A stretch of 64,000 bases of DNA, from the NCBI GenBank assembly GCA_030537155.1, contig JAUNOH010000002.1, positions 59,816 through 123,815 of the forward strand. The letters are read 5' to 3'. This stretch comes from Bacillota bacterium. Lineage in GTDB: Bacteria; Bacillota_I; Bacilli_A; RFN20; CAG-826. The notes under the pieces were generated by a model. The model ran no database searches. It saw only the letters and a program-made list of their open reading frames with translations, and was not told the origin of the DNA. Numbering within the stretch: the first letter of the stretch is position 1; each line of letters opens with the position of its first letter. Shown piece after piece: positions 28,962-47,098 of this stretch. The position numbers and the translations under genes are program-made.

Positions 28962-29053
28962 AAAATTGCAAGAACTTGCAAAAATGTAAAACAAACACAT
29001 CCTATTTACTAAACCGTGATATAATTTTATAAAATTGCAAGAACTTGCAAAAA
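28962..29053 (+). repeat. two perfect 24-nt direct repeats AAAATTGCAAGAACTTGCAAAAAT (28962-28985 and 29030-29053)
   Basis: Read directly. Each copy holds two self-complementary TTGCAA hexamers. The second copy abuts the start of the DUF4143 ATPase gene. An extended -10 TGATATAAT lies at 29018-29026. Confidence 0.8.
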
Positions 29054-29059
29054 TATTCA

Positions 29060-30370
29060 ATGGAATTAAATATGCGTTACGATCGAAAAAATTACGTAGA
29101 CAAGTTGCTGCGAAAAAGAAACAACGGGCTCGTCAAGGTTGTGACCGGCATAAGAAGGGTTGGCAAGAGCTTTATCCTTAACGAGCTGTTGAGAGAGAAG
29201 TTAATAGAAGGCGGATTTAATAAGGAAAATATCATTTCCTTCTCTTTTGATTCAGCCTTTGATTTGGAGAAAATAGGAGAGGATTTGCTCGACATCAAGG
29301 AAAAAAACAGAAAAGTGGACCCCCATAAATTCCTCCCCTTTATCCGGGAATTGACCAAAGGGGAAGGGCCTTATGTTTTGCTGCTTGATGAAATTCAGGA
29401 ATTAGGCAATTTCGAAGCCGTCTTAAATGGGTATCTTCGCCAAAATAACGTCGATGTCTATGTGACTGGGAGTAACGCACGCACACTTAGTAGGGATGTC
29501 TCGACAGAATTTGGCAAAAGGGGCGACGAAATCAAGGTTTACCCCTTGTCGTTCTCCGAATTTTACGAACATTCTGATCTTGGTTCACAAAAAGCTTTAA
29601 ATGATTATCTGCGCTTTGGCGGCATGCCGACCGTCGCCAATTGCGGTTCCGACGAGGAAAAGGCGGAGGAACTCAATGGTTTATTAGAAAAGATTTATCT
29701 ACGCGACGTTATCGTCAGAAACGGAGTGAATAACGAAGCCGGGCTTTCCGCGCTCCTTGATATCATGGCCTCCAACGTTGGGTCTCCGACCAATCCCAAA
29801 AAGATAGCCGATTCGTTTCAAAGCAAGGAAAAATTATCTTTAAGTCAGGCGACAATATCCAAATATCTGGAATATTTTGAAAACGCCTTTCTTTTAGAAC
29901 AATGCGCCCGTTACGACATCAAGGGGAAGGGCTACATCGAAACCCCAAAGAAATATTATTTTGAGGACCTCGGTTTAAGGAATTCGCGCCTGCGGTTTAG
30001 GCAATTCGACGAGGGTCATCTATTCGAGAATATGGTGTATCTGGAGTTATCCAGGAGAGGCTATGCGATTGACGTCGGGACCCTATTCCACAGCGAGCCA
30101 AATCACAACGGAAACTATGTGAGAAAGGAAATCGAAGTGGACTTTGTCGCCAGAAAAGGAGACAAAGAGATTTATATCCAATGCTGCAACACACTTCCGG
30201 AAGATGAGAAGGAGAAGGTGGAGAAAAGAGGTCTCATAAAGATTGGAAACTCCTTCAAGAAGATACTGCTGGTCAACAAGGAAATACCCCATTTCTACGA
30301 CCCGGACGGCATATTGACCTTAGGTGTTTTCGATTTTCTGCTTAGCGAAGATTCTATCGAAAGATACTAA
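29060..30370 (+). CDS. AAA_14 / DUF4143-family ATPase (COG1373-like), paralog 1
   Basis: Walker A GIRRVGKS. Walker B LLLDEIQ. C-terminal DUF4143-like region (restriction-endonuclease-like fold). Start is uncertain (TTG 29045, ATG 29060 or ATG 29072). Confidence 0.8.
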   Translation: MELNMRYDRKNYVDKLLRKRNNGLVKVVTGIRRVGKSFILNELLREKLIEGGFNKENIISFSFDSAFDLEKIGEDLLDIKEKNRKVDPHKFLPFIRELTKGEGPYVLLLDEIQELGNFEAVLNGYLRQNNVDVYVTGSNARTLSRDVSTEFGKRGDEIKVYPLSFSEFYEHSDLGSQKALNDYLRFGGMPTVANCGSDEEKAEELNGLLEKIYLRDVIVRNGVNNEAGLSALLDIMASNVGSPTNPKKIADSFQSKEKLSLSQATISKYLEYFENAFLLEQCARYDIKGKGYIETPKKYYFEDLGLRNSRLRFRQFDEGHLFENMVYLELSRRGYAIDVGTLFHSEPNHNGNYVRKEIEVDFVARKGDKEIYIQCCNTLPEDEKEKVEKRGLIKIGNSFKKILLVNKEIPHFYDPDGILTLGVFDFLLSEDSIERY

Positions 30371-33702: not shown

Positions 33703-33782
33703 TGTAAAAAGGTGCATTCAATTAGGAAAAAATAGTGTAAAAAGGTGCAAGTAACTATATAATATCTATGTAAAAAGGTGAA
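33703..33782 (+). repeat. three direct repeats TGTAAAAAGGTG(C/A)A phased exactly 33 bp apart (33703, 33736, 33769)
   Basis: Read directly. The third copy overlaps the start region of DUF4143 ATPase paralog 2. Confidence 0.75.
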
Positions 33783-33795
33783 AGCAAATCTTGAT

Positions 33796-35160
33796 ATGGA
33801 TAGAAAATATTTGGTGGATTTAATCAGGTGGAATCAGGACGAAAATAGAAAGCCTCTTTTGGTTTTTGGCGCTAGGCAAGTTGGGAAAAGTTACCTGATA
33901 GAGGAACTCTTTGCCAAAAAATATTATAAAAATGCCTATCTTAGGATCGATTGTTCTGATGATGGAGATTTCGTCGACTATGTCTATAAGAACGACAGTC
34001 TAGACAAAGTTTTGGATTATTTATATATCCGCTACGACTTTGTCCCCGATAAGAACCACCTACTCTTCGTCGACGAAGCGCAGGAGTGCTTGCCGATTAT
34101 TAAGATGATGAAGCATTTTTGTGAGCGAAGGAGAGAGATTCCTTTGATTGTCTCCGGTTCCTTGGTTCGAATCAAAATCAGCCGGGGTTCCAAGAAGGCG
34201 GGGCGAGAGGACAAGAAGTTTCTTTTCCCGGTTGGAAAAATAAATCAGCTCACGGTTTACCCACTAACCTTCGACGAGTTCCTATATAACTACAAGAAAA
34301 ACACCTACGATTATCTAACGAATTCATTCGCAGAAAAGAGTTTTATCAACGACGAGTTGCACCAGCAACTAATCGACATTTTCAATGACTATCTATTTGT
34401 CGGCGGCATGCCTGAGGCCGTTGACGTCTTCATCAAGAACAAAGAAAACAAAGTCTTTGCTTATGAGAAAGCCTACAAGACACTTTCCGACATCTATTCC
34501 AACTACCTGAGTGACATGGAACTCTATCAGGCTTCCAGCGAGTCTATTCTTAAGAGCAGGCTTATTTTTCGGAATATTTATTCTCAACTCAATAAGGAGA
34601 ACAAAAACTTTAAATGTTCCATGTTGAACGAGAAGTACAAGACTAGGGACGTCGTGGCCCCAATAGAATGGCTGGTAACCGCCAATGTCGTGAATAAATC
34701 CTTGCTTTTAAAAGAGCACGTTTCTACCCCGTTAGTCGAGGAAGACGGCTCCTTATATCGCCTATACCTTTCTGATATGGGTCTATTCACCTATCAGAGC
34801 GGATTGAAGGCGAAGGGTTTCGCCCTCGATAAGCAAAACAGCCTGTCCGGAATTTATTACGAGAATTATGTTTCCACGGAATTGGCCGCCAGAAATTTTC
34901 CATTGTTCTATTGGAAGGGAAAAAGAAGCAGCGAATTCGAATTCCTGCTGGATATAGATGGGAGGGTCGTTCCCATCGACTCCAAGAAGAAAAAGGGATC
35001 GCTCAATTCTATAAACGAATTTAGGATGCATAACAAAAGAGGGCCGGTGATCAAAGTTTCCATGAATCATTATGGTTACGACGAGGAAAACGAAATACTG
35101 ACGTTGCCATATTACTACTTCGCCTTCTATCTAAATTCCGTCATGAAAGGAATTTTATAA
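33796..35160 (+). CDS. AAA_14 / DUF4143-family ATPase, paralog 2
   Basis: Walker A GARQVGKS. Walker B LLFVDEAQ. DUF4143-like C-terminus. The ORF-track start is a GTG at 33778. ATG 33796 (MDRKYLV) is preferred. Confidence 0.8.
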   Translation: MDRKYLVDLIRWNQDENRKPLLVFGARQVGKSYLIEELFAKKYYKNAYLRIDCSDDGDFVDYVYKNDSLDKVLDYLYIRYDFVPDKNHLLFVDEAQECLPIIKMMKHFCERRREIPLIVSGSLVRIKISRGSKKAGREDKKFLFPVGKINQLTVYPLTFDEFLYNYKKNTYDYLTNSFAEKSFINDELHQQLIDIFNDYLFVGGMPEAVDVFIKNKENKVFAYEKAYKTLSDIYSNYLSDMELYQASSESILKSRLIFRNIYSQLNKENKNFKCSMLNEKYKTRDVVAPIEWLVTANVVNKSLLLKEHVSTPLVEEDGSLYRLYLSDMGLFTYQSGLKAKGFALDKQNSLSGIYYENYVSTELAARNFPLFYWKGKRSSEFEFLLDIDGRVVPIDSKKKKGSLNSINEFRMHNKRGPVIKVSMNHYGYDEENEILTLPYYYFAFYLNSVMKGIL

Positions 35161-37415: not shown

Positions 37416-38198
37416 ATGCATAAAAAATATTTGGCTTTCGGGCTACCAGTCTTAGGAGCCCTCGCAGTTGTAGGAAGCGGCTTTTCCGCTTGGGCGTTCG
37501 GAGGAAACACCACTTATGATGATGCATCTATCAATGTTGCCGTTACTGAAGTGGCCCAGTATGGTCAGGTAACGCCATTTAGCGATACCGTTTATTTGTT
37601 GCTTGACCAAGGTGGCCAGAGCAACGCCAGTGGCCAGGATTATGGTATTTCCTTTGTTAAGGTTGCAACGTCTTCTACTGATGGCGAAACCATAACTTTC
37701 AATAAAGATGAACCTGATACTTTTGAGATGGTTACATCGTTAGGTGCTACTTATTCTATTGATCAGGATTTAGTTGATACTCTAATTAATTCGGGCTTTA
37801 CCAAGTACAACCTTTCCTCAGAGATTTCTTTGACTAGCCCCTTGACTAATTATGTCGAGTTTAAGGCTCTGACAACCGCACAGAATTCAGATTCTACTTA
37901 TACATATTCTTTGGATAACAACGTTTTTAAAATGGTTGAGACGGATTCTCAAAGTCTTCCAACTTCCGGTGGAATTTCAAACGATGCTTTCCCGTCAATT
38001 GACGTCTCCAGCACCGAATCCACCTCTTCTGGAAGTAAGATTTATAGCGCCAACAAATTGCTTCAATACGCGACCGTTCCCCAGGAAGAATCCAGTACTG
38101 TTGTTGGTAAACCGACCGATTCTGCCGCCCTTTCCTCAATGTCTACTGCCCTGACATCGGCAACCATCACCGTCACCTTCACCGTCACCTGTGCCTGA
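37416..38198 (+). CDS. secreted Thr/Ser-rich protein with TasA/camelysin-type (SipW-cognate) signal peptide, 260 aa
   Basis: N-terminus MHKKYLAFGLPVLGALAVVGSGFSAWAFGGN. Compare B. subtilis TasA ...ALVGGGTWAAFND and camelysin ...IGGGTFAFF. AAAGGGGGGA RBS upstream. Confidence 0.7.
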   Translation: MHKKYLAFGLPVLGALAVVGSGFSAWAFGGNTTYDDASINVAVTEVAQYGQVTPFSDTVYLLLDQGGQSNASGQDYGISFVKVATSSTDGETITFNKDEPDTFEMVTSLGATYSIDQDLVDTLINSGFTKYNLSSEISLTSPLTNYVEFKALTTAQNSDSTYTYSLDNNVFKMVETDSQSLPTSGGISNDAFPSIDVSSTESTSSGSKIYSANKLLQYATVPQEESSTVVGKPTDSAALSSMSTALTSATITVTFTVTCA

Positions 38199-38298
38199 TT
38201 TATATGGGGCCTCCTTCATCCCCTGGGGGAGGCCCCGCCTCTACACCTTATTTATCAAGCCTATTCGTGACCATTAGTCTAATGGGGCTGAGATGAAT

Positions 38299-38336
38299 GT
38301 GGCTTGAGGGCCTTTGTGGCCGTAAGCCACGTTTTT
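38299..38336 (+). terminator. intra-operon terminator/attenuator hairpin between cluster genes 1 and 2
   Basis: GTGGCTTgaGGGCC-tttgt-GGCCgtAAGCCAC followed by GTTTTT. A second GC-rich 9-bp hairpin without a U-tail lies at 38206-38236. Confidence 0.55.
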
Positions 38337-38345
38337 AATGACACT

Positions 38346-38996
38346 ATGAAATACCTGAGACTGATAACCGCCTTGACAGTCCCGGCTCTCTCTGCCGGAT
38401 CTTTAATCGCGGTCGGGTATGCGTCTTGGGTGTTCTTGGATGTGCAAACAGCTACCGCCTCTGGCGAAGTTGTGGTGGCCTCGGAGTCGGTCTTAAACGG
38501 AGCTCTTACCTTAAGCATGGACCAATACTATTCGGAATTCAGGATCGTTTTCTCTCAGGGCGGTGCAGAACATCGCTATGAGGCGAACTATGGCATCGAC
38601 TTTGTACCTGAAATAGACTTTACCTTCACCTTTACCACCTCAACCCTCAATACTGCCGAATTCGACGGAACTAAGTTTTATATCGACTGTTCTTTCACCA
38701 CTGAGTCGACGGTATTTAACAATTACGCTTACCTCGTTACCTCAGATAGCAAAGTTGAGCTATTTGGCATCAGTGATGTAACCGCCACATCAACCAACCC
38801 AACAATTGTCGAAGAAACCGATGGCATTACTTATACCTACACCGGTTCCTATACTCCCGCTTTTGCCTATGTGAGCGAGAACAAGCCGACTACCGAATCG
38901 GCTTATAACACCATGATCAACGAGCTTAACAACGATGATGTTGCTAAGACCATCACGTTGACGGTCGCTCTGGAAAAGGAGACGACTACCTCATGA
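38346..38996 (+). CDS. secreted protein with SipW-cognate-type signal peptide, 216 aa
   Basis: MKYLRLITALTVPALSAGSLIAVGYASWVFLD. Same hydrophobic helix plus G-[FY]-[AS]-x-W-x-F motif as gene 1. The ORF-track start is a TTG at 38304. ATG 38346 is preferred. Confidence 0.65.
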   Translation: MKYLRLITALTVPALSAGSLIAVGYASWVFLDVQTATASGEVVVASESVLNGALTLSMDQYYSEFRIVFSQGGAEHRYEANYGIDFVPEIDFTFTFTTSTLNTAEFDGTKFYIDCSFTTESTVFNNYAYLVTSDSKVELFGISDVTATSTNPTIVEETDGITYTYTGSYTPAFAYVSENKPTTESAYNTMINELNNDDVAKTITLTVALEKETTTS

Positions 38997-41830
38997 ACTG
39001 GCTCGGATTTAAAAAACATCTAACCGGCATACTAGTCGCCTTAGGAGCGATTGTTCTTTCGGTTGGTACCGGCTTCTCCACATTCTATTTCTATGAAGCC
39101 GCCACGGCTTCCTCTAGCGTTAATGATGTCCCGGACGACATCAGGGAAAATCAGACCTTTGGCACGAACGACGACTCCATTACCGACACGACTAAGTACT
39201 ATGACGTCTACTTCATGCCCCAGATGGTGGATTTGACTGATTACGAAGACACAGTAGACGAGACGACGAGCAGCGTTGTCACCACTGCCACTGACGCTTG
39301 GACTGGCATCAAATACACAAATCTTGAAGTGACCACCTCCAGTGGCAAAACCAAAACGGTTAGGAATTATGAGACATTGCCAGATAGAGATACACTATTT
39401 TACAGAGATGTAGATTTAGATGACAAAAGCATCGCCAAAAGTTTTACTAGCGACTCTGTCACATATACAAGCCTCAATTCCACAATAAACTACGACCCGT
39501 CCGTTGATTATACCGACGATAATGACACCACTACGCAGGGAATGTGGGTGCCCGCTTACGGATATATGGATCCGGACACGCGCAAATATTGGGGAGAGGA
39601 GGTTCTTTCCACCACTTTTGAAGGAAATGCTGCTACCAGCTCCACCGGCGCTAATGGGGGAACGGCTACTTGGTCTTCATACAAAGGCTCTGTCTACCCC
39701 CTAACCTATCGCAAATACTCCAATGTAAGGAAAATCACAAACGACATGCTTGCGCAAGTCGGAACCCCTAAGGCTTGCATGTATGACTGCATGACCACTA
39801 TGTATAAGCTTGCCTTTTGTTCTTGGTCGGTTTCTTACATTAGTGGTTCTTATAAATACTATTCGAACAAAACAGATGATTACACTGACACAGCCACGAA
39901 TTGGCCAGGCAACTATCCATTTGAAGTTTCTGGGAGCTTCCCTACTAATTTTGAAATCGCCTATTTTGGCACCAGCTTGGATTTATATGAAGAAAAAGCC
40001 GTTTACATCAACGGGACCCCGACCCTGTTCTTCTATCCTGTTTATAGTACCGGCAAAGGCTATTATGAACTTAATAAGGACGGGTATGGAAAAGACGCCA
40101 TCAGGACCCATTATTATACCGGCGGGAATCAAGTGGTAGAATCGCTTCCCAAAGGTTATAAGAATCCTACCTTTTTGCCATATGACACAACGAATACCAA
40201 CAGCATTTCTTCTATAAAAAGCGGGGACTCAACACCATTGGCAAATGTCGAATGTTACCGCTATTCAAACATCAATTTTACCAGCAAGGCCGAGGCCTAC
40301 ACCGATGAAAACGCGATAAGTTTCAGCACGGACCCCGGTGTCAATGGGTCCCGCTCATGGCTAGGCACTTGGCATCCCATTTACTACGAGGGCTCCCCTT
40401 TTATCATCAATCGAAATACCGGGGTTTTTAACATTTATGTTTTTGTTCTCGTCTCCACATCTTCATCGGAAACCGCCTTTACGTCTGATGAAACGGAATT
40501 AATCATCAATTGCATGATTAATTCCGATGTGGAACCATATGTCCAGCCCTATGAATCTTATGATTGTGAGACGATAACCGTTGATAGCAACTATCGTGAT
40601 TATTTCATCGTCTTTGAAAAAGTTTACGAGCCCAGACTCATTGCAGGCCCCACCAAGACCTTTGATTATGAAAGTACTGGTTCCATTAATACACCGGTGA
40701 TTCGCGAAGAGCCTACCGGCATTGAAAAAGATTCTTTTTCCTGCAGCGACATCACCTTCGACTTCGAGAACGATTATGTGACGTACGATTATACCTCCCC
40801 CAACACCGGTTACACCTATAGGTTTACGGATTATTTCTTCTCGTTCCAGTTAGCAAAAAACGATGCATACAATTCATATATCGTAAGCCCGGTTAATGAG
40901 AGTTCGACGTTCTCTTATTCCATACCAGAGATTCAATATGTGAATGCGTCCGCCGCAGAACAATACAAGTCGAAGTCCATACTCATCTCGATATTAGAGG
41001 AATACAACGTTCTTTATAAGTATGAACATACGTCGACCAGCTATTTAGCGTATGAGGCATACGTTGAGAGCTTCGCTTTGGATTTCCAGCGACTTGGCGT
41101 TTATATTAGCGGAAAATTTACGTGTTTAGCCGATCTGGAAAAGGTCACGACTGTTAATGGTGTGACCTCTGCTTCCCTTGGTTACACAAACTATCTTGAG
41201 TATGCCGTAACCACCATGCAAAACCTTATCAGGCCTTTGGAGATCGGGGTTTATAATCTGGCCGTCCACATCAACTACGACACCACCTCTCACCGACCAT
41301 CGACAATTGACGTTTGGGCACACAAGAAACACAACTATTTCGTTAACGTCAACGGCACCGACAAAGGAACCGAAGCGACTCAGGACAGTACCAGCAGTAG
41401 CAGTGGCGACGTCAGCTATTACGCTAATGTCACCGATTATGATTACCAATATAGCAGCTACTATTACCTGCTTTCGTATATCATGCCGACCGACGAGTAC
41501 AACTATAAGGTGACTACAACCGTTGATGGCACGGAAACCACAACGACGTCGACAACAACTTTCTTACAAATTCTTTCGAATTATCATCAGCAGGGCAAAT
41601 GCCTTCAGGATCGTGTAACCGGGAAATACATAACCTATCAGGATTACCAAAATTATTCTGACGCCTTGGCCGAATACTCGAGTAGTATCAGCGCCGGCTT
41701 AACCGCCACGGCGCCACAGGCAAGTGCCTATAACCTCTTCCAAATCACAGGAAACCACATCCTACAAGCCGTTGCCGAACCCTCTTGGGTAACCTCATAT
41801 TCATCATCTTCCGCGGAGGCCTTACTATGA
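38993..41830 (+). CDS. large (945 aa) Thr/Ser/Tyr-rich secreted protein with SipW-cognate-type signal peptide
   Basis: MNWLGFKKHLTGILVALGAIVLSVGTGFSTFYFYEA... No recognisable domains. 4-nt overlap with gene 2. ATGA overlap with the downstream sipW-like gene. Confidence 0.7.
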   Translation: MNWLGFKKHLTGILVALGAIVLSVGTGFSTFYFYEAATASSSVNDVPDDIRENQTFGTNDDSITDTTKYYDVYFMPQMVDLTDYEDTVDETTSSVVTTATDAWTGIKYTNLEVTTSSGKTKTVRNYETLPDRDTLFYRDVDLDDKSIAKSFTSDSVTYTSLNSTINYDPSVDYTDDNDTTTQGMWVPAYGYMDPDTRKYWGEEVLSTTFEGNAATSSTGANGGTATWSSYKGSVYPLTYRKYSNVRKITNDMLAQVGTPKACMYDCMTTMYKLAFCSWSVSYISGSYKYYSNKTDDYTDTATNWPGNYPFEVSGSFPTNFEIAYFGTSLDLYEEKAVYINGTPTLFFYPVYSTGKGYYELNKDGYGKDAIRTHYYTGGNQVVESLPKGYKNPTFLPYDTTNTNSISSIKSGDSTPLANVECYRYSNINFTSKAEAYTDENAISFSTDPGVNGSRSWLGTWHPIYYEGSPFIINRNTGVFNIYVFVLVSTSSSETAFTSDETELIINCMINSDVEPYVQPYESYDCETITVDSNYRDYFIVFEKVYEPRLIAGPTKTFDYESTGSINTPVIREEPTGIEKDSFSCSDITFDFENDYVTYDYTSPNTGYTYRFTDYFFSFQLAKNDAYNSYIVSPVNESSTFSYSIPEIQYVNASAAEQYKSKSILISILEEYNVLYKYEHTSTSYLAYEAYVESFALDFQRLGVYISGKFTCLADLEKVTTVNGVTSASLGYTNYLEYAVTTMQNLIRPLEIGVYNLAVHINYDTTSHRPSTIDVWAHKKHNYFVNVNGTDKGTEATQDSTSSSSGDVSYYANVTDYDYQYSSYYYLLSYIMPTDEYNYKVTTTVDGTETTTTSTTTFLQILSNYHQQGKCLQDRVTGKYITYQDYQNYSDALAEYSSSISAGLTATAPQASAYNLFQITGNHILQAVAEPSWVTSYSSSSAEALL

Positions 41831-44478
41831 GTACCGTTTTCCCTGTCTTTAACATCCTCGCCAGCGCCGACCAGATCGAGGGCATCTCCTTTGCCGTCTC
41901 CATCACCGTCATCGCCTTATTGACGATCGCCTATGGCGTCCTTTTCTTCATCTACTACAAGCTATACGCCAAATGCGTCAACGGCTCATTAGAGGACGAC
42001 TACCTAAAGAGAGAGGTCGTCTATGAGCATAAACGCTACTTCAAGAAGACGGAGCCCGTGGTCAACGACCACGACCTTCAGGAAAGCGACAAGCGCGAAG
42101 GAACCATAACCTTAGGTGAGCATGTCGAGCAGCATAAGCGGACCAGGAATGGCTTGAAGTTCCTCTCCAACTCCATCTTGGTCGTCACCTACCTCATCTT
42201 CGTCGCCCTTATGGCCAGCGCCATCTATGTCCGCCGGAGCGGCGATATCTTCACCATCGGCGGTCAGGGCTATCTAATCATCGAGACCTCCTCCATGGAG
42301 ACCGTCAGCACCTCCAACACGGCGGTCGTCGAGGCCGGATTGGATGATCAGATCGAGGCCTTATCCTTAATCAATATTGTCTCCCTTGAAGATGAATCCG
42401 ATGTCTCCTTGTTCGACATCGTCGCCTTCCATGATTCGGATGGCAACATCATCGTCCACCGCGTCGTCTCCATCACCCAGGATAACGACACTGGGGAGAC
42501 CCTCTATACCTGCAGGGGCGACGCCAACACCGGCTCGGCCCTCTATGAGGTCGGATTGACCTTTGATGACCTATTGGGCAAATATGGCGGATTCCAAAAT
42601 TTCGGCTTAGGCGTCTTCATCTACTACATGAAGAGCCCCATCGGCTTGATCACCCTGGCCTTCGCCTTGGTTTTGGTTGGATTCTATGACCTGATGGATA
42701 TCCTCTTAGGTCGACGTATCGCCCAAAGGAAGATGGTCATGGTCGGCATCATCGATAATGAAATCGATAAAGCCATCTCCGATGACGATGAGATCCACTA
42801 TTTGGATTGGATCAGCAACAAGAAACGCAAGAAGTCGTTCAAGCCCAAAGAAGAGGAGAAGAAGGTTGAAGAACCCGTAGCCGAGGAACCCGCGCCGGTC
42901 ATCGAAGAGCCTGTGCCCGCCCCGGAGGTAGTCGTGGTGGCCGAAGCAGCCGAGAAGAAGGAATATCCTCGCACCAGCTTCCTCGACAAGATGGCCAACA
43001 TCGACGACAACCTCAAGCAGAAGTACAACGAACTGAAGGCCCACTTGCTCTCCTGGGATTTGAAGAGCCGCATCTCAAAATCCGGGGACACCTTCAGGAA
43101 GTCTTATAAGATGTATGCCCGCATCACGGTCTCGGGCAAATCGCTCAAGCTCTATCTGGCCCTCGACCCGAAGAGCTATGAGGGAACTACCTATCCGGTC
43201 CAGGATGTCTCCGCCAAGAAGGCCTTTGCCGAGATACCCTGCATGATCAAGGTCAAATCCGACCTCTCCCTGAATAGGGCTAAGAAGCTAGTTGACGATA
43301 TGTTCATCGACTCCGGCATCACGCCCTGGGAGGTTATTGAGCACGACCACTGGTCCGATCTATTCGCCAACCCCATCGAGGATGAAGAGCCCGAAGCGGT
43401 GGAGGAAGATGTCGAAGAGGTGGTCGAGGAGCCCGTGGTGGCCCCCGAACCCGTCGTCGTACCGGTCCCCGAAGAGGCTGCCCCCGTCGTCTATCAGAGG
43501 ACGAGCTTCCTCGATAAGATGGCCGGCATCGATGATGACCTCAAAGCCAAATACAACGAGCTTAAGGACTACCTGCTATCCTGGGATCTGAAGAGCCGCA
43601 TATCTAAATCCGGCGATAGCTTCCGTAAGTCCTATAAGATGTACGCGAGGATCGCCGTATCCGGAAAGGCATTGAAGCTATACCTGGCTTTGGATCCCGC
43701 CGCATATGCCGATAGCCCGATCCCGGTGAAGGACGTCTCCTCCAAGAAGGTGTTCGCCGAGATCCCGGCCATGATCAAGGTCAAGTCGGATCTCTCCCTC
43801 AACAGGGCGAAGAAACTGATCGACGATATGTTCGTCGATTCGGGCATCACCCAGTGGGAGATAACCCCCGAAGATTATTATTCGGCCCTCTTTGCCGGAG
43901 ATGAGCCCATAGAGGACGATGAAGAGGTCGTGGACGAGGAATCTCCCGCCACGGAGGCTCCCGCGCCCGTAGAGCCCGAAATCGTGCCTGAGGAGCCTGA
44001 AAGCGCCCCCGAGGAGGAAGCCCCTGCCGAAGCGGCCGCCGAAGGATATAAGAGGTTATCCTTCTCCGATAGGCTCGATAACGCCTCCGAAAGCCAGATT
44101 GAGCAGTATAACGCCATCAAGCAGGCCTTCTACGAATATGGCCTAAAGGGCCGTTACTCGGCCTCGGGCGAATCCTTCAGGAAGCATGGAAAACGCTATG
44201 GCAAGCTATGCTTCACCCAGAAGGGTTTGAGGTTATACCTCTCGCTGGATCCCGCTTCCTTCGCGGATAGCCCGATCCCGGTGAAGGATTGCTCGTCCAA
44301 TAAGTCGGTCTCCGATGTGCCTTGCTCCATCAAGATCAGGAGCCCGCTCTCGTTAAAGAGGGCCCTCCAGATGATCGAGCAGGCCCTAGCCGAGGATGAT
44401 CTCCCAAAGAAAGAGGTTAAGCCCGTCGACCACTACGCCGAAATACTGGCTACCCTCGAGGAGAAATCCAAGTCTTAG
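41827..44478 (+). CDS. sipW: SipW-type (ER/archaeal-type Ser/His) signal peptidase I fused to a ~550-aa C-terminal repeat-containing tail (883 aa)
   Basis: LKFLSNSILVVTYLIFVALMASAIYV...GYLIIETSSMETV aligns with B. subtilis SipW LKRLLTWSVNIILIILLAFLSVYNA...LKAVLSGSMEPEF. IVHRVVSI aligns with VTHRIVDI. CRGDANTG aligns with TKGDNNAA. KSPIGLITLAFALVLV aligns with SQPIGTAVLLIVPGV. Catalytic Ser codon at 42292-42294. His codon at 42457-42459. The C-terminal tail has three tandem repeats starting at 42964, 43492 and 44047. Confidence 0.8.
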   Translation: MSTVFPVFNILASADQIEGISFAVSITVIALLTIAYGVLFFIYYKLYAKCVNGSLEDDYLKREVVYEHKRYFKKTEPVVNDHDLQESDKREGTITLGEHVEQHKRTRNGLKFLSNSILVVTYLIFVALMASAIYVRRSGDIFTIGGQGYLIIETSSMETVSTSNTAVVEAGLDDQIEALSLINIVSLEDESDVSLFDIVAFHDSDGNIIVHRVVSITQDNDTGETLYTCRGDANTGSALYEVGLTFDDLLGKYGGFQNFGLGVFIYYMKSPIGLITLAFALVLVGFYDLMDILLGRRIAQRKMVMVGIIDNEIDKAISDDDEIHYLDWISNKKRKKSFKPKEEEKKVEEPVAEEPAPVIEEPVPAPEVVVVAEAAEKKEYPRTSFLDKMANIDDNLKQKYNELKAHLLSWDLKSRISKSGDTFRKSYKMYARITVSGKSLKLYLALDPKSYEGTTYPVQDVSAKKAFAEIPCMIKVKSDLSLNRAKKLVDDMFIDSGITPWEVIEHDHWSDLFANPIEDEEPEAVEEDVEEVVEEPVVAPEPVVVPVPEEAAPVVYQRTSFLDKMAGIDDDLKAKYNELKDYLLSWDLKSRISKSGDSFRKSYKMYARIAVSGKALKLYLALDPAAYADSPIPVKDVSSKKVFAEIPAMIKVKSDLSLNRAKKLIDDMFVDSGITQWEITPEDYYSALFAGDEPIEDDEEVVDEESPATEAPAPVEPEIVPEEPESAPEEEAPAEAAAEGYKRLSFSDRLDNASESQIEQYNAIKQAFYEYGLKGRYSASGESFRKHGKRYGKLCFTQKGLRLYLSLDPASFADSPIPVKDCSSNKSVSDVPCSIKIRSPLSLKRALQMIEQALAEDDLPKKEVKPVDHYAEILATLEEKSKS

Positions 44479-44578: not shown

Positions 44579-47098
44579 ATGGCTGGGGTACGCGGGATTT
44601 TATTCAAGAAGCTGTTTCGCGGTTTTAAAGGCAGTGGAAGCAATTCCTCTCCCTCTTCTTCATCGGCACGATGGCGATGTCGCTCTATATTGGCCTATAT
44701 GCCAACGCCCTTTGCTTAGAAAGCCGGGTGGAGTCGGTCTATACCGACGGGAATCTGGCCGACGTCAATATCGCCGTCTCCTCATATAACGAGGGGGATT
44801 TAACCCACGTTGAGTCTTTGGCGGAACCCTTTGGCTTTAACGATAGTGAATCCCGTTACGTACTAGGCGCCTCGATATCCGCGAATTCATGTAACCTCAT
44901 CATCGCCCCCTCTTTATCGTCCATCTCGATTAACAAACCCATTAATATTGTCGACCGCTCCTCGACGGACACCGAATTCTTTTTGACTTCCTCCCTCTAC
45001 CGCACCACCGAAAATTATGCCCGCGAGGTCGTCGTCTCGGCCTCGGAGATAACTAACATCCTTTATTACTCCGCCCAGAATAACGGGTATGAGGGTTCCA
45101 GGAGTGAGCTACTCACCGAGCTGGATTCCCTTTGCACAGCAACCGAGAATCCCTTTAGGGAGAATCAGCTTTCCCTTTCCTACCGCTATACCGGCTACAC
45201 CGATTCGCCGGAAGGCATCGTCAACGACACCTTCTCCATCCGCATGCTCTACATGGGCAAGAAGACCTTCCAAAGAGGGGTCGCTAGCTTCATAAGCTCC
45301 AACTTCTCAGACGCCACGAGGCTGAATGCCCTATTTGGCTTAACGACCGACGATATAGCCTCTCCTACGAGTTTCCCGCGCGATAACCAATATCTCCTGG
45401 ATATGGGCTCCCACGATGGCTTAGAGGGACTGGAGGAGGAGATAATCGCCTATTTCCAAAATGGCTCCACCGGATATGTCAGTTCCATCACCGACCGGAG
45501 CACCTATACCTTCGTCATCGCCACCTCCACCGAGATCGGGCAGGCCTATTCGCTTTGCTACGTCTTCCCGCCTTTCTTTTATCTAGTCGGCTTCTTGGTG
45601 TGCGTCACCACCAATAACCAGTTATTGACTAGGGAGAGGAAAAACATCGGGATCATGAAATCCCTCTCCGTCCCCAAAAAGTGGATATACCTCCATTATG
45701 GCCTATATACCGGACTGCCTATTTTCCTCTCCTGCGTGGCGGCCATGGGCTTTGGGCCCTGGATATTCCCAATCGCCGTCAACGTCAAATACCGGACGAT
45801 CTATGATCTCCCCTCGGTCTTTTATACCTTCCCGATCCTCCAGGCCCTATTGGGGACGGCAATCTTCCTTTTCGCCTCCTTGTTGGTCTCCTCGCTTTTG
45901 CTTAGGAAACAGATGAAGGAGAACCCCGTCGAATTGCTCCGCCCCAAAAGCCCGCCCTACACCAAAAGGCATGAGAGGAGCCTTAAGAGGCCTTCCCCCA
46001 TCAAACTAAACATCGTCATGGCCGTCCGGAACATGCGGGTCAACTTGGCTAAATCGATGATGGTCGTGGTGGGGGTATTTGGCTGCACCTCCCTTATGTG
46101 CGCGGCTTTCGGGATGCTCGATTCCATCGACTATGGGGTCAACCTCGAACTGTCCGAATTCTTCGATTACGACCTCAAGGCCAATTACACCGCCCGCGGG
46201 GATTATCAGGAGGAGCTATCCGCCATCTCCTGGATCAGCGAGTATGAGCAGTTCTCCCAAAACGGGACCGTGGTTACGGCGGTGAATGAAGGTGGCTTGA
46301 GCGGGAGCTCCTACGCCGGGGGATATCTTCGTCTTTGGGGATAGCAAACCCATCCATACGATTGAATTGCCCGAAACCGGCGGGGGCGTCACCATCAGCC
46401 AGAAGATAGCCACCCAGATATCGGTTGAGGTGGGGGATACGGTCTCATTCTCCTTTTTGGGCAACGAATACCAGGCCACCGTCGGGCGGATTGAGCACAC
46501 CTTCATAACCTTCGGCGTCTTCACCAGTTTCGAAGAACTCGGCATCGAGCCGACCTATAACATATGCGGCATTAGAATGAATGAGGGCATGACCCTAACT
46601 CAGGGCTATAACCTCATCAAAAAGCAATCCTTCGTCCAAGATGCCTATTGGGTTCAGCGGAACGCCGTAAACCAGATTTCCTCCGTTTATGGTGGGGTGG
46701 AGATACTATCCTGGATCATGGAGATATTCGCGGTCTTCATGGCTTTGGCGGTTTTATATAACCTGGCTTCCATGAATTACCGCGATAGGGTGCGTGACAT
46801 GATCATCATGAAGACGATGGGCTTTGACAAAATCAACGTCAGTGCCAGCCTCATCATGGAGACGCTTTTCCTCACCCTTTTGGGTGTGGCGGGTGGACTG
46901 GGCTTTGGCTATCCCCTGCTATATTGGATATTCCAGGTCAACAGCATGGCCATCGTCGATTTCTTCTACGTCATCGACCCGATCAGCTATTTCGCATCTT
47001 TCCTCATCAGCTTCGGGGTCGGCATATTGGTGAGCGTCATCCTCTGCCTATTGACCGATCGCATAAAGCTATCGGAGTCACTCAAGGAAATAGAGTAG
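44579..47098 (+). pseudogene. FtsX-domain ABC transporter permease (MacB/YtrF-like, two FtsX modules) disrupted by two frameshifts
   Basis: N-terminal MAGVRGILFKKLFRGFKGS (frame A, from ATG 44579) shifts near 44625 into ...WKQFLSLFFIGTMAMSLY... (ORF 44671-46344). FtsX motifs ERKNIGIMKSLSV and DRVRDMIIMKTMGFD. A second shift in a G5 tract at 46318-46322 joins ...SSYAG to DIFVFGDSKPIHTIELPETGGGVTIS (ORF 46367-47098). Confidence 0.65.

Follow-up and report, generated by a model that had tools for sequence, protein, structure and literature searches.

A three-module, predicted cytoplasmic tail on an ER-type signal peptidase of a Bacillota bacterium

The locus described here raises the question of what a signal peptidase does with a C-terminal tail of 590 residues that contains three repeated modules. 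The gene lies in a window of 64,000 nucleotides (the whole stretch of DNA that was analysed) from contig JAUNOH010000002.1 of an uncultured, gut-type bacterium of the Bacilli (Bacillota), within an open reading frame at 41785–44478 of the forward (+) strand, the strand of all features given below. The coding sequence (41827..44478) begins with an ATG at 41827, which overlaps, as ATGA, the stop codon of the preceding reading frame and lies 7 nt after a GGAGG ribosome-binding site, and it yields a product of 883 amino acids plus stop. A scan for promoters and terminators gave nothing above chance.

The gene product belongs to the ER-type signal peptidases (S26B, SipW/Sec11-like). The peptidase domain (aa 136–262; 42232..42612) is recognised by family profiles and contains Ser156 (42292–42294), His211 (42457–42459) and Asp232 (42520–42522), which are invariant in the family alignments and lie in the motifs SGSME, HR and GD(A/N)N of Bacillus subtilis SipW and eukaryotic SEC11, human SEC11A/C included. 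In SipW, Ser47, His87 and Asp106 are essential and the cytoplasmic C-terminus is functional (PMC8767453). A profile of the peptidase family matches SEC11C/SEC11A at E = 2e-6, with SGSME, IVHRV and GDAN aligned; this was the only query to reach SEC11, since sequence searches of the PDB with the whole protein, the module profile or the single peptidase domain gave no match. The NCBIfam SipW model (NF046067) is matched at E = 8e-10 with 38.6 bits against a cut-off of 190, TIGR02228 at E = 2.8e-9 with 37 bits against a cut-off of 51.85, and a Pfam scan of the protein gave no peptidase match (S24/S26). These scores, below the curated cut-offs, together with the lack of a Pfam peptidase match, indicate a divergent relative and not a SipW equivalog. 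The likeness to SipW and SEC11 extends to an ectodomain flanked by transmembrane segments and to a cytoplasmic C-terminus, both predicted for the window protein, and in the case of SipW perhaps also to a gene set in an operon with secreted proteins that have a special signal in common. The window protein differs from both in its extra N-terminal transmembrane segment with a conserved cytoplasmic loop of 68 aa and in a stretch of ~25 additional aa inserted after the Ser motif and before the His motif, and from SipW in the length of its tail, 590 aa as against ~20 aa. Canonical SipW indeed has no such tail, as had been pointed out in the sequence-only reading from which this work started; its model covers ~189 positions.

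That reading had also assigned three transmembrane segments, and hydropathy agrees, the last of them ending near aa 296 (~295 in the earlier estimate). TM1 (aa 21–44; 41887..41958) is the segment without a counterpart in canonical SipW; it falls within a helix at aa 14–48 of an AlphaFold2 (AF2) model, and the absence of Lys or Arg from aa 1–20 places the N-terminus, by prediction, outside the cell. There follows a conserved, predicted cytoplasmic loop (aa 45–112; 41959..42162), with 14 K/R in 68 aa and the pattern YYxxYxKC...EDxY...E...F, the residues of which are invariant across family members, tail-less ones included. This loop is the sole well-predicted part (pLDDT 83–88) of the N-terminal AF2 model, which, made for the N-terminal 340 aa from 5 sequences, has a pLDDT of 56, with the peptidase domain at <50, and is too poor for a fold search. 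TM2 (aa 113–135; 42163..42231) and the TM3 region (aa 263–296; 42613..42714), the latter running from out to in and followed by RRIAQRK, enclose the peptidase ectodomain, which has a net charge of −16. The density of K/R residues is 0.21–0.22 in the loop and in the segment after TM3, compared to 0.04 in the ectodomain. On the basis of hydropathy and this positive-inside count, the catalytic domain is predicted to sit outside the cell, between TM2 and TM3, with the C-terminal 590 residues in the cytoplasm.

The cytoplasmic position of the tail, as originally proposed, gains further support from proteins that carry the same module. In one of these (P0134) the modules come after the GGDEF and EAL domains of a single, cytoplasmic GGDEF-EAL enzyme, and in many other proteins they lie behind single-TM anchors that have no K/R ahead of the TM segment and a K/R cluster behind it, which indicates an N-out/C-in orientation. 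It is scarcely credible, in this regard, that the tail is either an artefact, in which a frameshift or a chimeric assembly has joined a separate gene to that of the peptidase, or a part of the protein exposed outside the cell. No support for either was found; the N-terminal AF2 model is too poor to confirm the topology independently. An extracellular tail is contradicted by the positive-inside pattern and, in other module proteins, by the fusion to GGDEF-EAL domains and by the N-out anchors, each of which puts it inside. Against an artefact, the 883-aa product is called identically by gene callers in two other independent assemblies, a contig of 295 kb encodes a 99%-identical cluster, and in-frame peptidase fusions with 1–3 modules are found in several MAGs and protein clusters. 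Both possibilities, which the sequence-only reading had named as its own potential refutation, are rejected: one intact gene encodes peptidase and tail, the latter being in frame and conserved.

The tail opens with the post-TM3 segment (aa 297–379; 42715..42963), containing a Lys/Glu-rich stretch and a Pro/Glu/Val linker, and continues with module R1 (aa 380–518; 42964..43380; core pI 9.3, net charge +6), acidic linker 1 (aa 519–555; 43381..43491; net charge −17 over aa 506–555), module R2 (aa 556–694; 43492..43908; pI 9.3), acidic linker 2 (aa 695–740; 43909..44046; net charge −23 over aa 682–740) and the diverged module R3 (aa 741–883; 44047..44475; pI 9.4), which reaches the C-terminus. The repeat starts assigned earlier, 42964, 43492 and 44047, are exact, corresponding to aa 380, 556 and 741 and thus to periods of 176 and 185 aa, and the acidic Pro/Glu/Val spacers quoted then are present in the sequence. 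R1 and R2 are identical at 109 of 141 residues (77%; local score 555), R1 and R3 at 49 of 135 (36%; 263) and R2 and R3 at 56 of 135 (41%; 295), scores that lie 40–90 standard deviations above shuffled controls (mean ~31, sd ~6, maximum 53). R3 is therefore diverged, as had been claimed, at ~36–42% identity to the other two. The high identity of R1 to R2 likewise stands, slightly under the ~80–85% first put on it: the 126-aa core has 79% identity at the protein level (72% in DNA). For this core, pS is saturated at 0.775 with pN at 0.15, which argues, in agreement with the earlier suggestion, for an old duplication under purifying selection. TRF reports only a 21-nt periodicity in the linkers (43380–43435 and 43972–44016) and misses the modules, whose copies have diverged too far in DNA. 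The repeats are confirmed independently by a model from outside this analysis, the PADLOC HMM for PDC-S18, which has three distinct matches along the tail.

The module is no orphan feature of this peptidase, and on this point the earlier reading needs correction. An exhaustive HMM search with a module profile finds 3,351 representative clusters, at the 50% identity level, with E ≤ 1e-3 (3,010 with E ≤ 1e-10), and these include unrelated proteins; the module is a very large, promiscuous and uncurated domain family of Bacillota proteins. It occurs in 1–7 tandem copies per protein, in the top-scoring matches almost always C-terminal to TM segments and mostly facing the cytoplasm, the membrane proteins concerned being unrelated; many soluble module proteins without a signal peptide also exist. 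At least four S26B-like lineages carry it. Modules group by lineage, and copy number shifts fast by tandem duplication inside lineages. Across the family the modules are basic (median pI 9.5, 93% net positive) and the linkers acidic (median net charge −9), and in 12 columns of the module alignment K/R make up ≥70%, several of these columns falling on beta strands. Such a basic charge would also fit anionic lipids, or the protein's own acidic linkers, as the ligand. A word-indexed protein search, with one repeat or with a 41-module profile, yielded only unannotated proteins of <250 aa, which give no information on partners. Two stand-alone module proteins lie in genomic surroundings that suggest no function for them, and a search of PHROGs matched neither the tail nor the operon proteins.

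In terms of structure, the module is a basic alpha/beta domain of ~125–135 aa in which two helices are followed by a four-stranded meander, one or two more strands and a final helix, as seen in an AF2 model of R2 (pLDDT 84.9, pTM 0.80). This arrangement is the alpha+beta sandwich, or 'double-wing', fold of the superfamily of DUF5655, DUF1801 (YdhG) and YjbR. In the BFVD the model is matched best by a protein of DUF5655 (probability 1.00, E = 3e-3, TM 0.56), and Foldseek gave no significant match in the PDB. At the sequence level, 6 of 41 modules match DUF5655 (best E = 2e-4) and 2 of the 41 match DUF3788, all below threshold, and DUF1801 matches the module of one protein (P0018) at E = 6e-5 with 23.8 bits against a cut-off of 27.2; the window's own repeats give no such match. 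The earlier statement that the module matches no recognisable domain holds, then, insofar as no Pfam or NCBIfam model exceeds its cut-off, but not beyond that, as remote relatives exist in DUF5655, DUF1801 and YjbR and the module is contained within the PDC-S18 HMMs. Fold and weak HMM evidence together suggest a place for the module near the DUF5655, DUF1801 (YdhG) and YjbR/MmcQ double-wing group, as a remote relative. Members of the YjbR family have been described with a MotA-like double-wing DNA-binding fold (PMC7641849). For the C-terminal domain of MotA the binding of nucleic acids is reported, and for YjbR it has been proposed. From YjbR/MmcQ (PF04237, DUF419), DUF1801 (PF08818), DUF5655 (PF18899) and the C-terminal domain of T4 MotA, the module differs in being only 8–18% identical to the solved structures and in its arrangement, in which tandem copies joined by acidic linkers are attached to membrane proteins on their cytoplasmic side. 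We know of no report of such membrane-side arrays for these families. The same fold also serves to bind iron or proteins, in frataxin and in the chaperones of type III secretion. Frataxin binds iron via an acidic ridge; a frataxin-like role was considered for the module and rejected, given that the module is basic and the iron site of frataxin acidic.

Further indications come from the domains with which the module keeps company, although the survey of these was of 95 top-scoring, mostly multi-copy proteins and its frequencies are biased accordingly. A domain homologous to residues 66–144 of B. subtilis uL15 (E = 1.3e-9), that is, to the C-terminal part of this ribosomal protein, is present in 16 of the 95, including an S26B-like peptidase with a module array (P0133), and DUF2357 is present in ~15 of the 95. 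In the PDC-S18 models (PDLC04946 and PDLC04945) the C-terminal ~130 positions are the module, and the window protein matches at E = 7.6e-24. The match, however, covers only positions ~187–325 of models of 302–365 positions, such that the N-terminal half is absent from the window protein, and the window gene lies in a secretion operon and not inside a BREX, DISARM or RM system, its immediate neighbours encoding secreted proteins, an FtsX permease and a cyclophilin-like protein. Neither a full-length match nor a location in a defence system is thus found. PDCs are themselves only candidate phage-defence systems (bioRxiv 10.1101/2024.01.29.577857). A search of the literature found nothing on the tail, on PDC-S18 or on uL15-like fusions to membrane proteins, and for DUF5655 a Methanobrevibacter genome report was the sole match.

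Within its operon, the peptidase gene is preceded by three genes (37416–38198, 38346–38996 and 38993–41830; together 37416..41830), homologues of which adjoin the peptidase gene in related MAG loci (L003–L012 and L014). Their products have in common an N-terminal signature, M[HK]KK...VGSGFSAW[VT]F, and match neither the NCBIfam model of the SipW-cognate signal nor any other model; judged by this signature and its neighbourhood, the VGSGFSAW proteins are probable, candidate substrates of the peptidase. A TetR-family gene lies upstream on the opposite strand, and no conventional regulator is present inside the operon. Orthologous peptidases in the conserved operon carry 0, 1, 2 or 3 modules, a tail-less orthologue (L007) having a K/R-rich tail instead. 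It is evident from this variation that the tail is accessory, in other words an optional add-on and not part of the enzyme.

What, then, might such an add-on do? The reading we prefer, with a probability of roughly 0.55, is that the tail acts as a multivalent cytoplasmic tether for polyanions or nucleic acids, a function suggested by the basic modules, the conserved K/R columns, the double-wing-like fold and the uL15-like, DUF2357 and PDC-S18 partners. Each module would be a weak binder of polyanions, most probably DNA or RNA, and their tandem arrangement would provide multivalent avidity, such that the peptidase, and with it the site of secretion or assembly of the VGSGFSAW proteins, could be tethered to the nucleoid, transcripts or ribosomes just inside the membrane. 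The module would do the same job on many unrelated membrane proteins, and the chemistry of the peptidase should run independently of the tail. Against this reading count the use of the fold by binders of iron or proteins, the fit of the basic charge to other ligands, the uninformative contexts of the two stand-alone module proteins, the lack of a Pfam match above the gathering score and the bias in the survey of partner domains. An unlikely alternative, in line with the scaffold or platform that the sequence-only reading proposed, is that the modules bind a specific cytoplasmic protein, be it the unfolded pre-proteins of the operon in a chaperone-like manner or a component of another machine, and thereby couple it to the peptidase; the evidence leans to generic polyanion or nucleic-acid binding over a peptidase-specific partner of this kind.

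Two narrower proposals involving nucleic acids need to be set beside the generic tether. It would be consistent with the basic, double-wing-like module, and with the absence of a conventional regulator from inside the operon, for the tail to be a membrane-tethered regulator that signals to gene expression by binding DNA directly near the operon, the more so as the 20 cytoplasmic C-terminal residues of SipW activate matrix genes without a need for peptidase activity. Such a role nevertheless appears improbable, as the occurrence of 0–3 copies in orthologous operons speaks against an essential regulatory function, and sequence-specific regulators are rarely arrays of 1–7 copies that duplicate fast on dozens of unrelated membrane proteins. 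Equally doubtful is a tether for ribosomes or mRNA in particular, by which the array would keep translating ribosomes or transcripts at the membrane for co-translational action of the peptidase: whilst the modules are basic and the uL15-like homologue caps many arrays, that of the S26B-like P0133 among them, the window protein has no uL15-like domain, and the links of the module with DUF2357 and PDC-S18 favour DNA over ribosomes. Moreover, we know of no binding of a free uL15 C-terminal domain to assembled ribosomes.

Beyond this locus, the domain family, with over 3,000 clusters at the 50% identity level, is named in no curated library, and a family model of its own would allow thousands of 'hypothetical' tails to be annotated consistently. 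Its fast-evolving tandem arrays are attached to many membrane proteins of Bacillota on the side of the cytoplasm, and their co-occurrence with the uL15-like domain hints at a wider theme of membrane-to-ribosome or membrane-to-nucleoid tethering. At its most speculative, and with little expectation on our part that it holds, module arrays, often capped by the uL15-like domain, would be a general, hitherto unrecognised Bacillota system that anchors the machines of the membrane to ribosomes, transcripts or the nucleoid, and the ER-type peptidase would then act co-translationally, as does the eukaryotic signal peptidase complex. If true, this could supply a mechanism for the effect of SipW C-termini on gene expression; to our knowledge there is no established mechanism for the peptidase-independent function of the SipW tail. 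With at least four peptidase lineages having gained the module, a folded, probably nucleic-acid-binding tail offers a concrete hypothesis in this respect. An analogy exists in insertases of the YidC2/Oxa1 type, which have ribosome-binding basic C-terminal tails and so, as secretion-pathway membrane proteins, likewise bear a basic cytoplasmic extension, although the insertase tails are short and unstructured whereas the tail of the window protein consists of folded, repeated domains.

The protein is shown to be an intact ER-type peptidase with an optional tail in the cytoplasm, where three basic folded domains are strung on acidic linkers. It is classed as a divergent peptidase of the SipW type, joined to an uncurated domain from a known fold superfamily. 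Its tail is real, in-frame and optional. The open reading frame (41785-44478, plus strand) contains an ATG at 41827 that overlaps the stop of the ORF before it (ATGA), with a GGAGG at a 7-nt spacing upstream; translation from this ATG gives 883 aa. Gene calls on contigs of two other sequencing runs yield the identical 883-aa protein, and a cluster 99% identical to it lies on a 295-kb contig. The sequence-only reading had considered that the tail might be a separate downstream gene joined by a frameshift; such an artefact of sequencing or assembly is contradicted by the independent contigs.

The three repeats begin exactly where that reading had placed them, at 42964, 43492 and 44047 (aa 380, 556 and 741). 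Repeats 1 and 2 are identical at 109 of 141 positions (77%, local score 555), with lower values for repeats 1 and 3 (36%, 263) and 2 and 3 (41%, 295), against a mean score of ~31 (sd ~6) for shuffled-sequence controls. The DNA of repeats 1 and 2 is only 72% identical, with pS at 0.775, such that synonymous sites are saturated, and pN at 0.15; it follows that the duplication is old and that purifying selection acts on the copies, as had been proposed. This divergence is also why Tandem Repeats Finder misses the modules and detects just a 21-nt periodicity in the acidic linkers. The latter, an imperfect 7-aa period between modules at 43380-43435 and 43972-44016, suggests that the linkers grew by short tandem duplication.

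With regard to the peptidase itself, a Pfam scan of the protein returned no match, and the NCBIfam matches to SipW (E 8e-10, profile positions 43-160 of 189) and to TIGR02228, the archaeal-type signal peptidase, both fall below threshold. A profile of 15 family members, however, matches human SEC11C and SEC11A (E 2e-6), with the SGSME, IVHRV and GDAN motifs aligned. Ser156, His211 and Asp232 are invariant in the family alignments and correspond to Ser47, His87 and Asp106 of Bacillus subtilis SipW, a triad that is essential in that enzyme (PMC8767453). Hydropathy gives three TM segments, and Lys/Arg residues number 0 of 20 in aa 1-20, 14 of 68 in the loop at 45-112, 5 of 127 in the ectodomain at 136-262 (net charge -16) and 9 of 41 in the segment after TM3. 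By this distribution the catalytic domain faces outward and the tail lies within the cell, which bears out the cytoplasmic location first suggested and contradicts an extracellular tail. An AF2 model of residues 1-340 is poor (pLDDT 56) and uninformative on topology; its sole confident part is the helical cytoplasmic loop that joins the extra TM1 to TM2 (41959-42162, aa 45-112; pLDDT 83-88), which is kept in relatives without a tail and has many invariant residues (Y43, Y44, Y47, C50, E56, D57, Y59, E63, E67 and F72).

The module is not private to this peptidase but common to thousands of other proteins. When a profile made from the window's three repeats plus four initial matches was searched against 1.84 billion cluster representatives, 3,351 representative proteins matched at E<=1e-3, 3,010 of them at E<=1e-10, with one to seven copies in each. 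Among the best 150 of the 3,351 are proteins in which an N-terminal single-TM anchor leads into an acidic linker and then modules, proteins with 4 or 12 TMs that carry modules at the C-terminus, proteins of 1,600-2,800 aa whose modules come after a signal peptide, a very large ectodomain and a TM, and soluble multi-module proteins. The single-TM anchors have a Lys/Arg cluster after the TM and none before it, and are therefore N-out/C-in; together with P0134, in which the modules follow cytoplasmic GGDEF and EAL domains, this places the modules in the cytoplasm. Other S26B-like peptidases with the module include P0017/P0063, P0061 and P0133; P0064 and P0150 resemble signal peptidases by eye, yet the peptidase HMM does not match them.

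The earlier view that the module matches no recognisable domain holds for curated domains, none of which matches, but the module does have relatives. Across 41 diverse modules, Pfam gave DUF5655 in six and DUF3788 in two, all sub-threshold, and one P0018 module matched DUF1801 (E 6e-5). The AF2 module model is confident (pLDDT 84.9, pTM 0.80, from a seven-sequence alignment) and shows a four-stranded meander plus further strands between two helices at the N-terminus and one at the C-terminus. Foldseek found nothing significant for it in the PDB; among viral models, a DUF5655 protein is the best fold match (probability 1.0, E 3e-3). Three independent weak lines thus place the module in the DUF5655/DUF1801/YjbR group, members of which are described as having a MotA-like 'double-wing' DNA-binding fold (PMC7641849). 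Median pI is 9.5 over 364 modules, 93% of them net positive, and 9.3-9.4 for the window's three cores; linkers are acidic (median net charge -9), and Lys/Arg accounts for at least 70% of residues in twelve module alignment columns. From this fold family and these conserved basic positions, the array is a putative multivalent binder of polyanions, most probably nucleic acid, by which the peptidase and its site of secretion would be anchored to the nucleoid, to transcripts or to ribosomes. That the modules form instead a specific protein-binding platform is unlikely.

Partner domains point the same way as the fold. DUF2357, which accompanies a PD-(D/E)XK nuclease domain, occurs in ~15 of the 95 top module proteins scanned with Pfam; P0008, P0021, P0048 and 11 others are soluble proteins of 1,000-1,500 aa with three or four modules and DUF2357. 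The C-terminal ~130 positions of the PADLOC PDC-S18 HMMs are the module, and these HMMs match the window protein in three stretches (E 7.6e-24); PDCs are phage-defence candidates defined by embedding in BREX, DISARM or type I RM systems (bioRxiv 10.1101/2024.01.29.577857). Taken together, these associations suggest that the module is used in defence or in DNA processing. Many module-bearing membrane proteins terminate in a ~75-aa uL15-like domain, and Ribosomal_L27A (uL15 family) lies at the extreme C-terminus in 16 of the 95; it aligns to B. subtilis uL15 residues 66-144 (E 1.3e-9), and a literature search found no report of this fusion. This homologue of the uL15 C-terminal globular domain caps P0025, P0058, P0077, P0119, P0187, P0212 and the S26B-like P0133. 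The polyanion-binding reading draws on the uL15-like caps as well as on DUF2357 and PDC-S18; that the array is specifically a ribosome tether is rather improbable.

Module number varies from zero to three while the operon context stays constant: none in L007, L008 and L010-L014, one in L003, L005, L006 and P0148, two in L009, P0190, P0191 and P0036, and three in the window and L004/P0028. Copies within a protein are more alike than positional counterparts in relatives (80% identity for the window's first two, 86-97% for the three of P0017); tandem duplication within individual lineages therefore accounts for the changes in copy number. In L007 (9001-10140) the orthologous peptidase ends, without modules, in a ~80-aa tail very rich in Lys/Arg, with two similar short segments (GKIEFKVP and GKIEARVP). 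This tail may stand in functionally for the basic modules, and the replacement is a further ground for the polyanion-binding reading. A regulatory tail of the SipW kind is a doubtful explanation. The finding bears on what this very large domain family does, and links to the second role of the SipW C-terminus.

Among GTDB species genomes, a scan found 12 related loci. Eleven are in MAGs whose labels read uncultured Bacilli, Firmicutes or 'bacterium', and the twelfth, the weakest match (L014), is in a bin labelled Prevotellaceae. At all the loci but one, the short contig L013, the peptidase gene adjoins homologues of the window's upstream genes, namely small proteins of ~200-250 aa and, in 10 of these 11, one copy of a large protein (~700-945 aa) directly upstream. 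The three upstream genes in the window (37416-38198, 38346-38996 and 38993-41830, plus strand) have a strongly conserved N-terminal signature in common, M[HK]KK...PVLGAA.VGSGFSAW[VT]F, which is found on one to four small proteins beside the peptidase in each related MAG locus but L013 and, in several loci, on the large protein. Pfam, NCBIfam and PHROGs gave no match for any signature protein. These proteins are probable dedicated substrates of the peptidase, and the whole resembles a dedicated system, for secretion or fibres, that has a signal class to itself.

Downstream of the peptidase, two adjacent ORFs 22 nt apart (44671-46344 and 46367-47098, plus strand) each contain an FtsX-like permease domain, with no adjoining ABC ATPase gene; the split is probably genuine, since it is called alike in the independent assemblies L001 and L002. 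Upstream of the operon lies a paralogous pair of AAA_14/DUF4143-type ATPase genes (29045-30370 and 33778-35160, plus strand), less than 5 kb apart.
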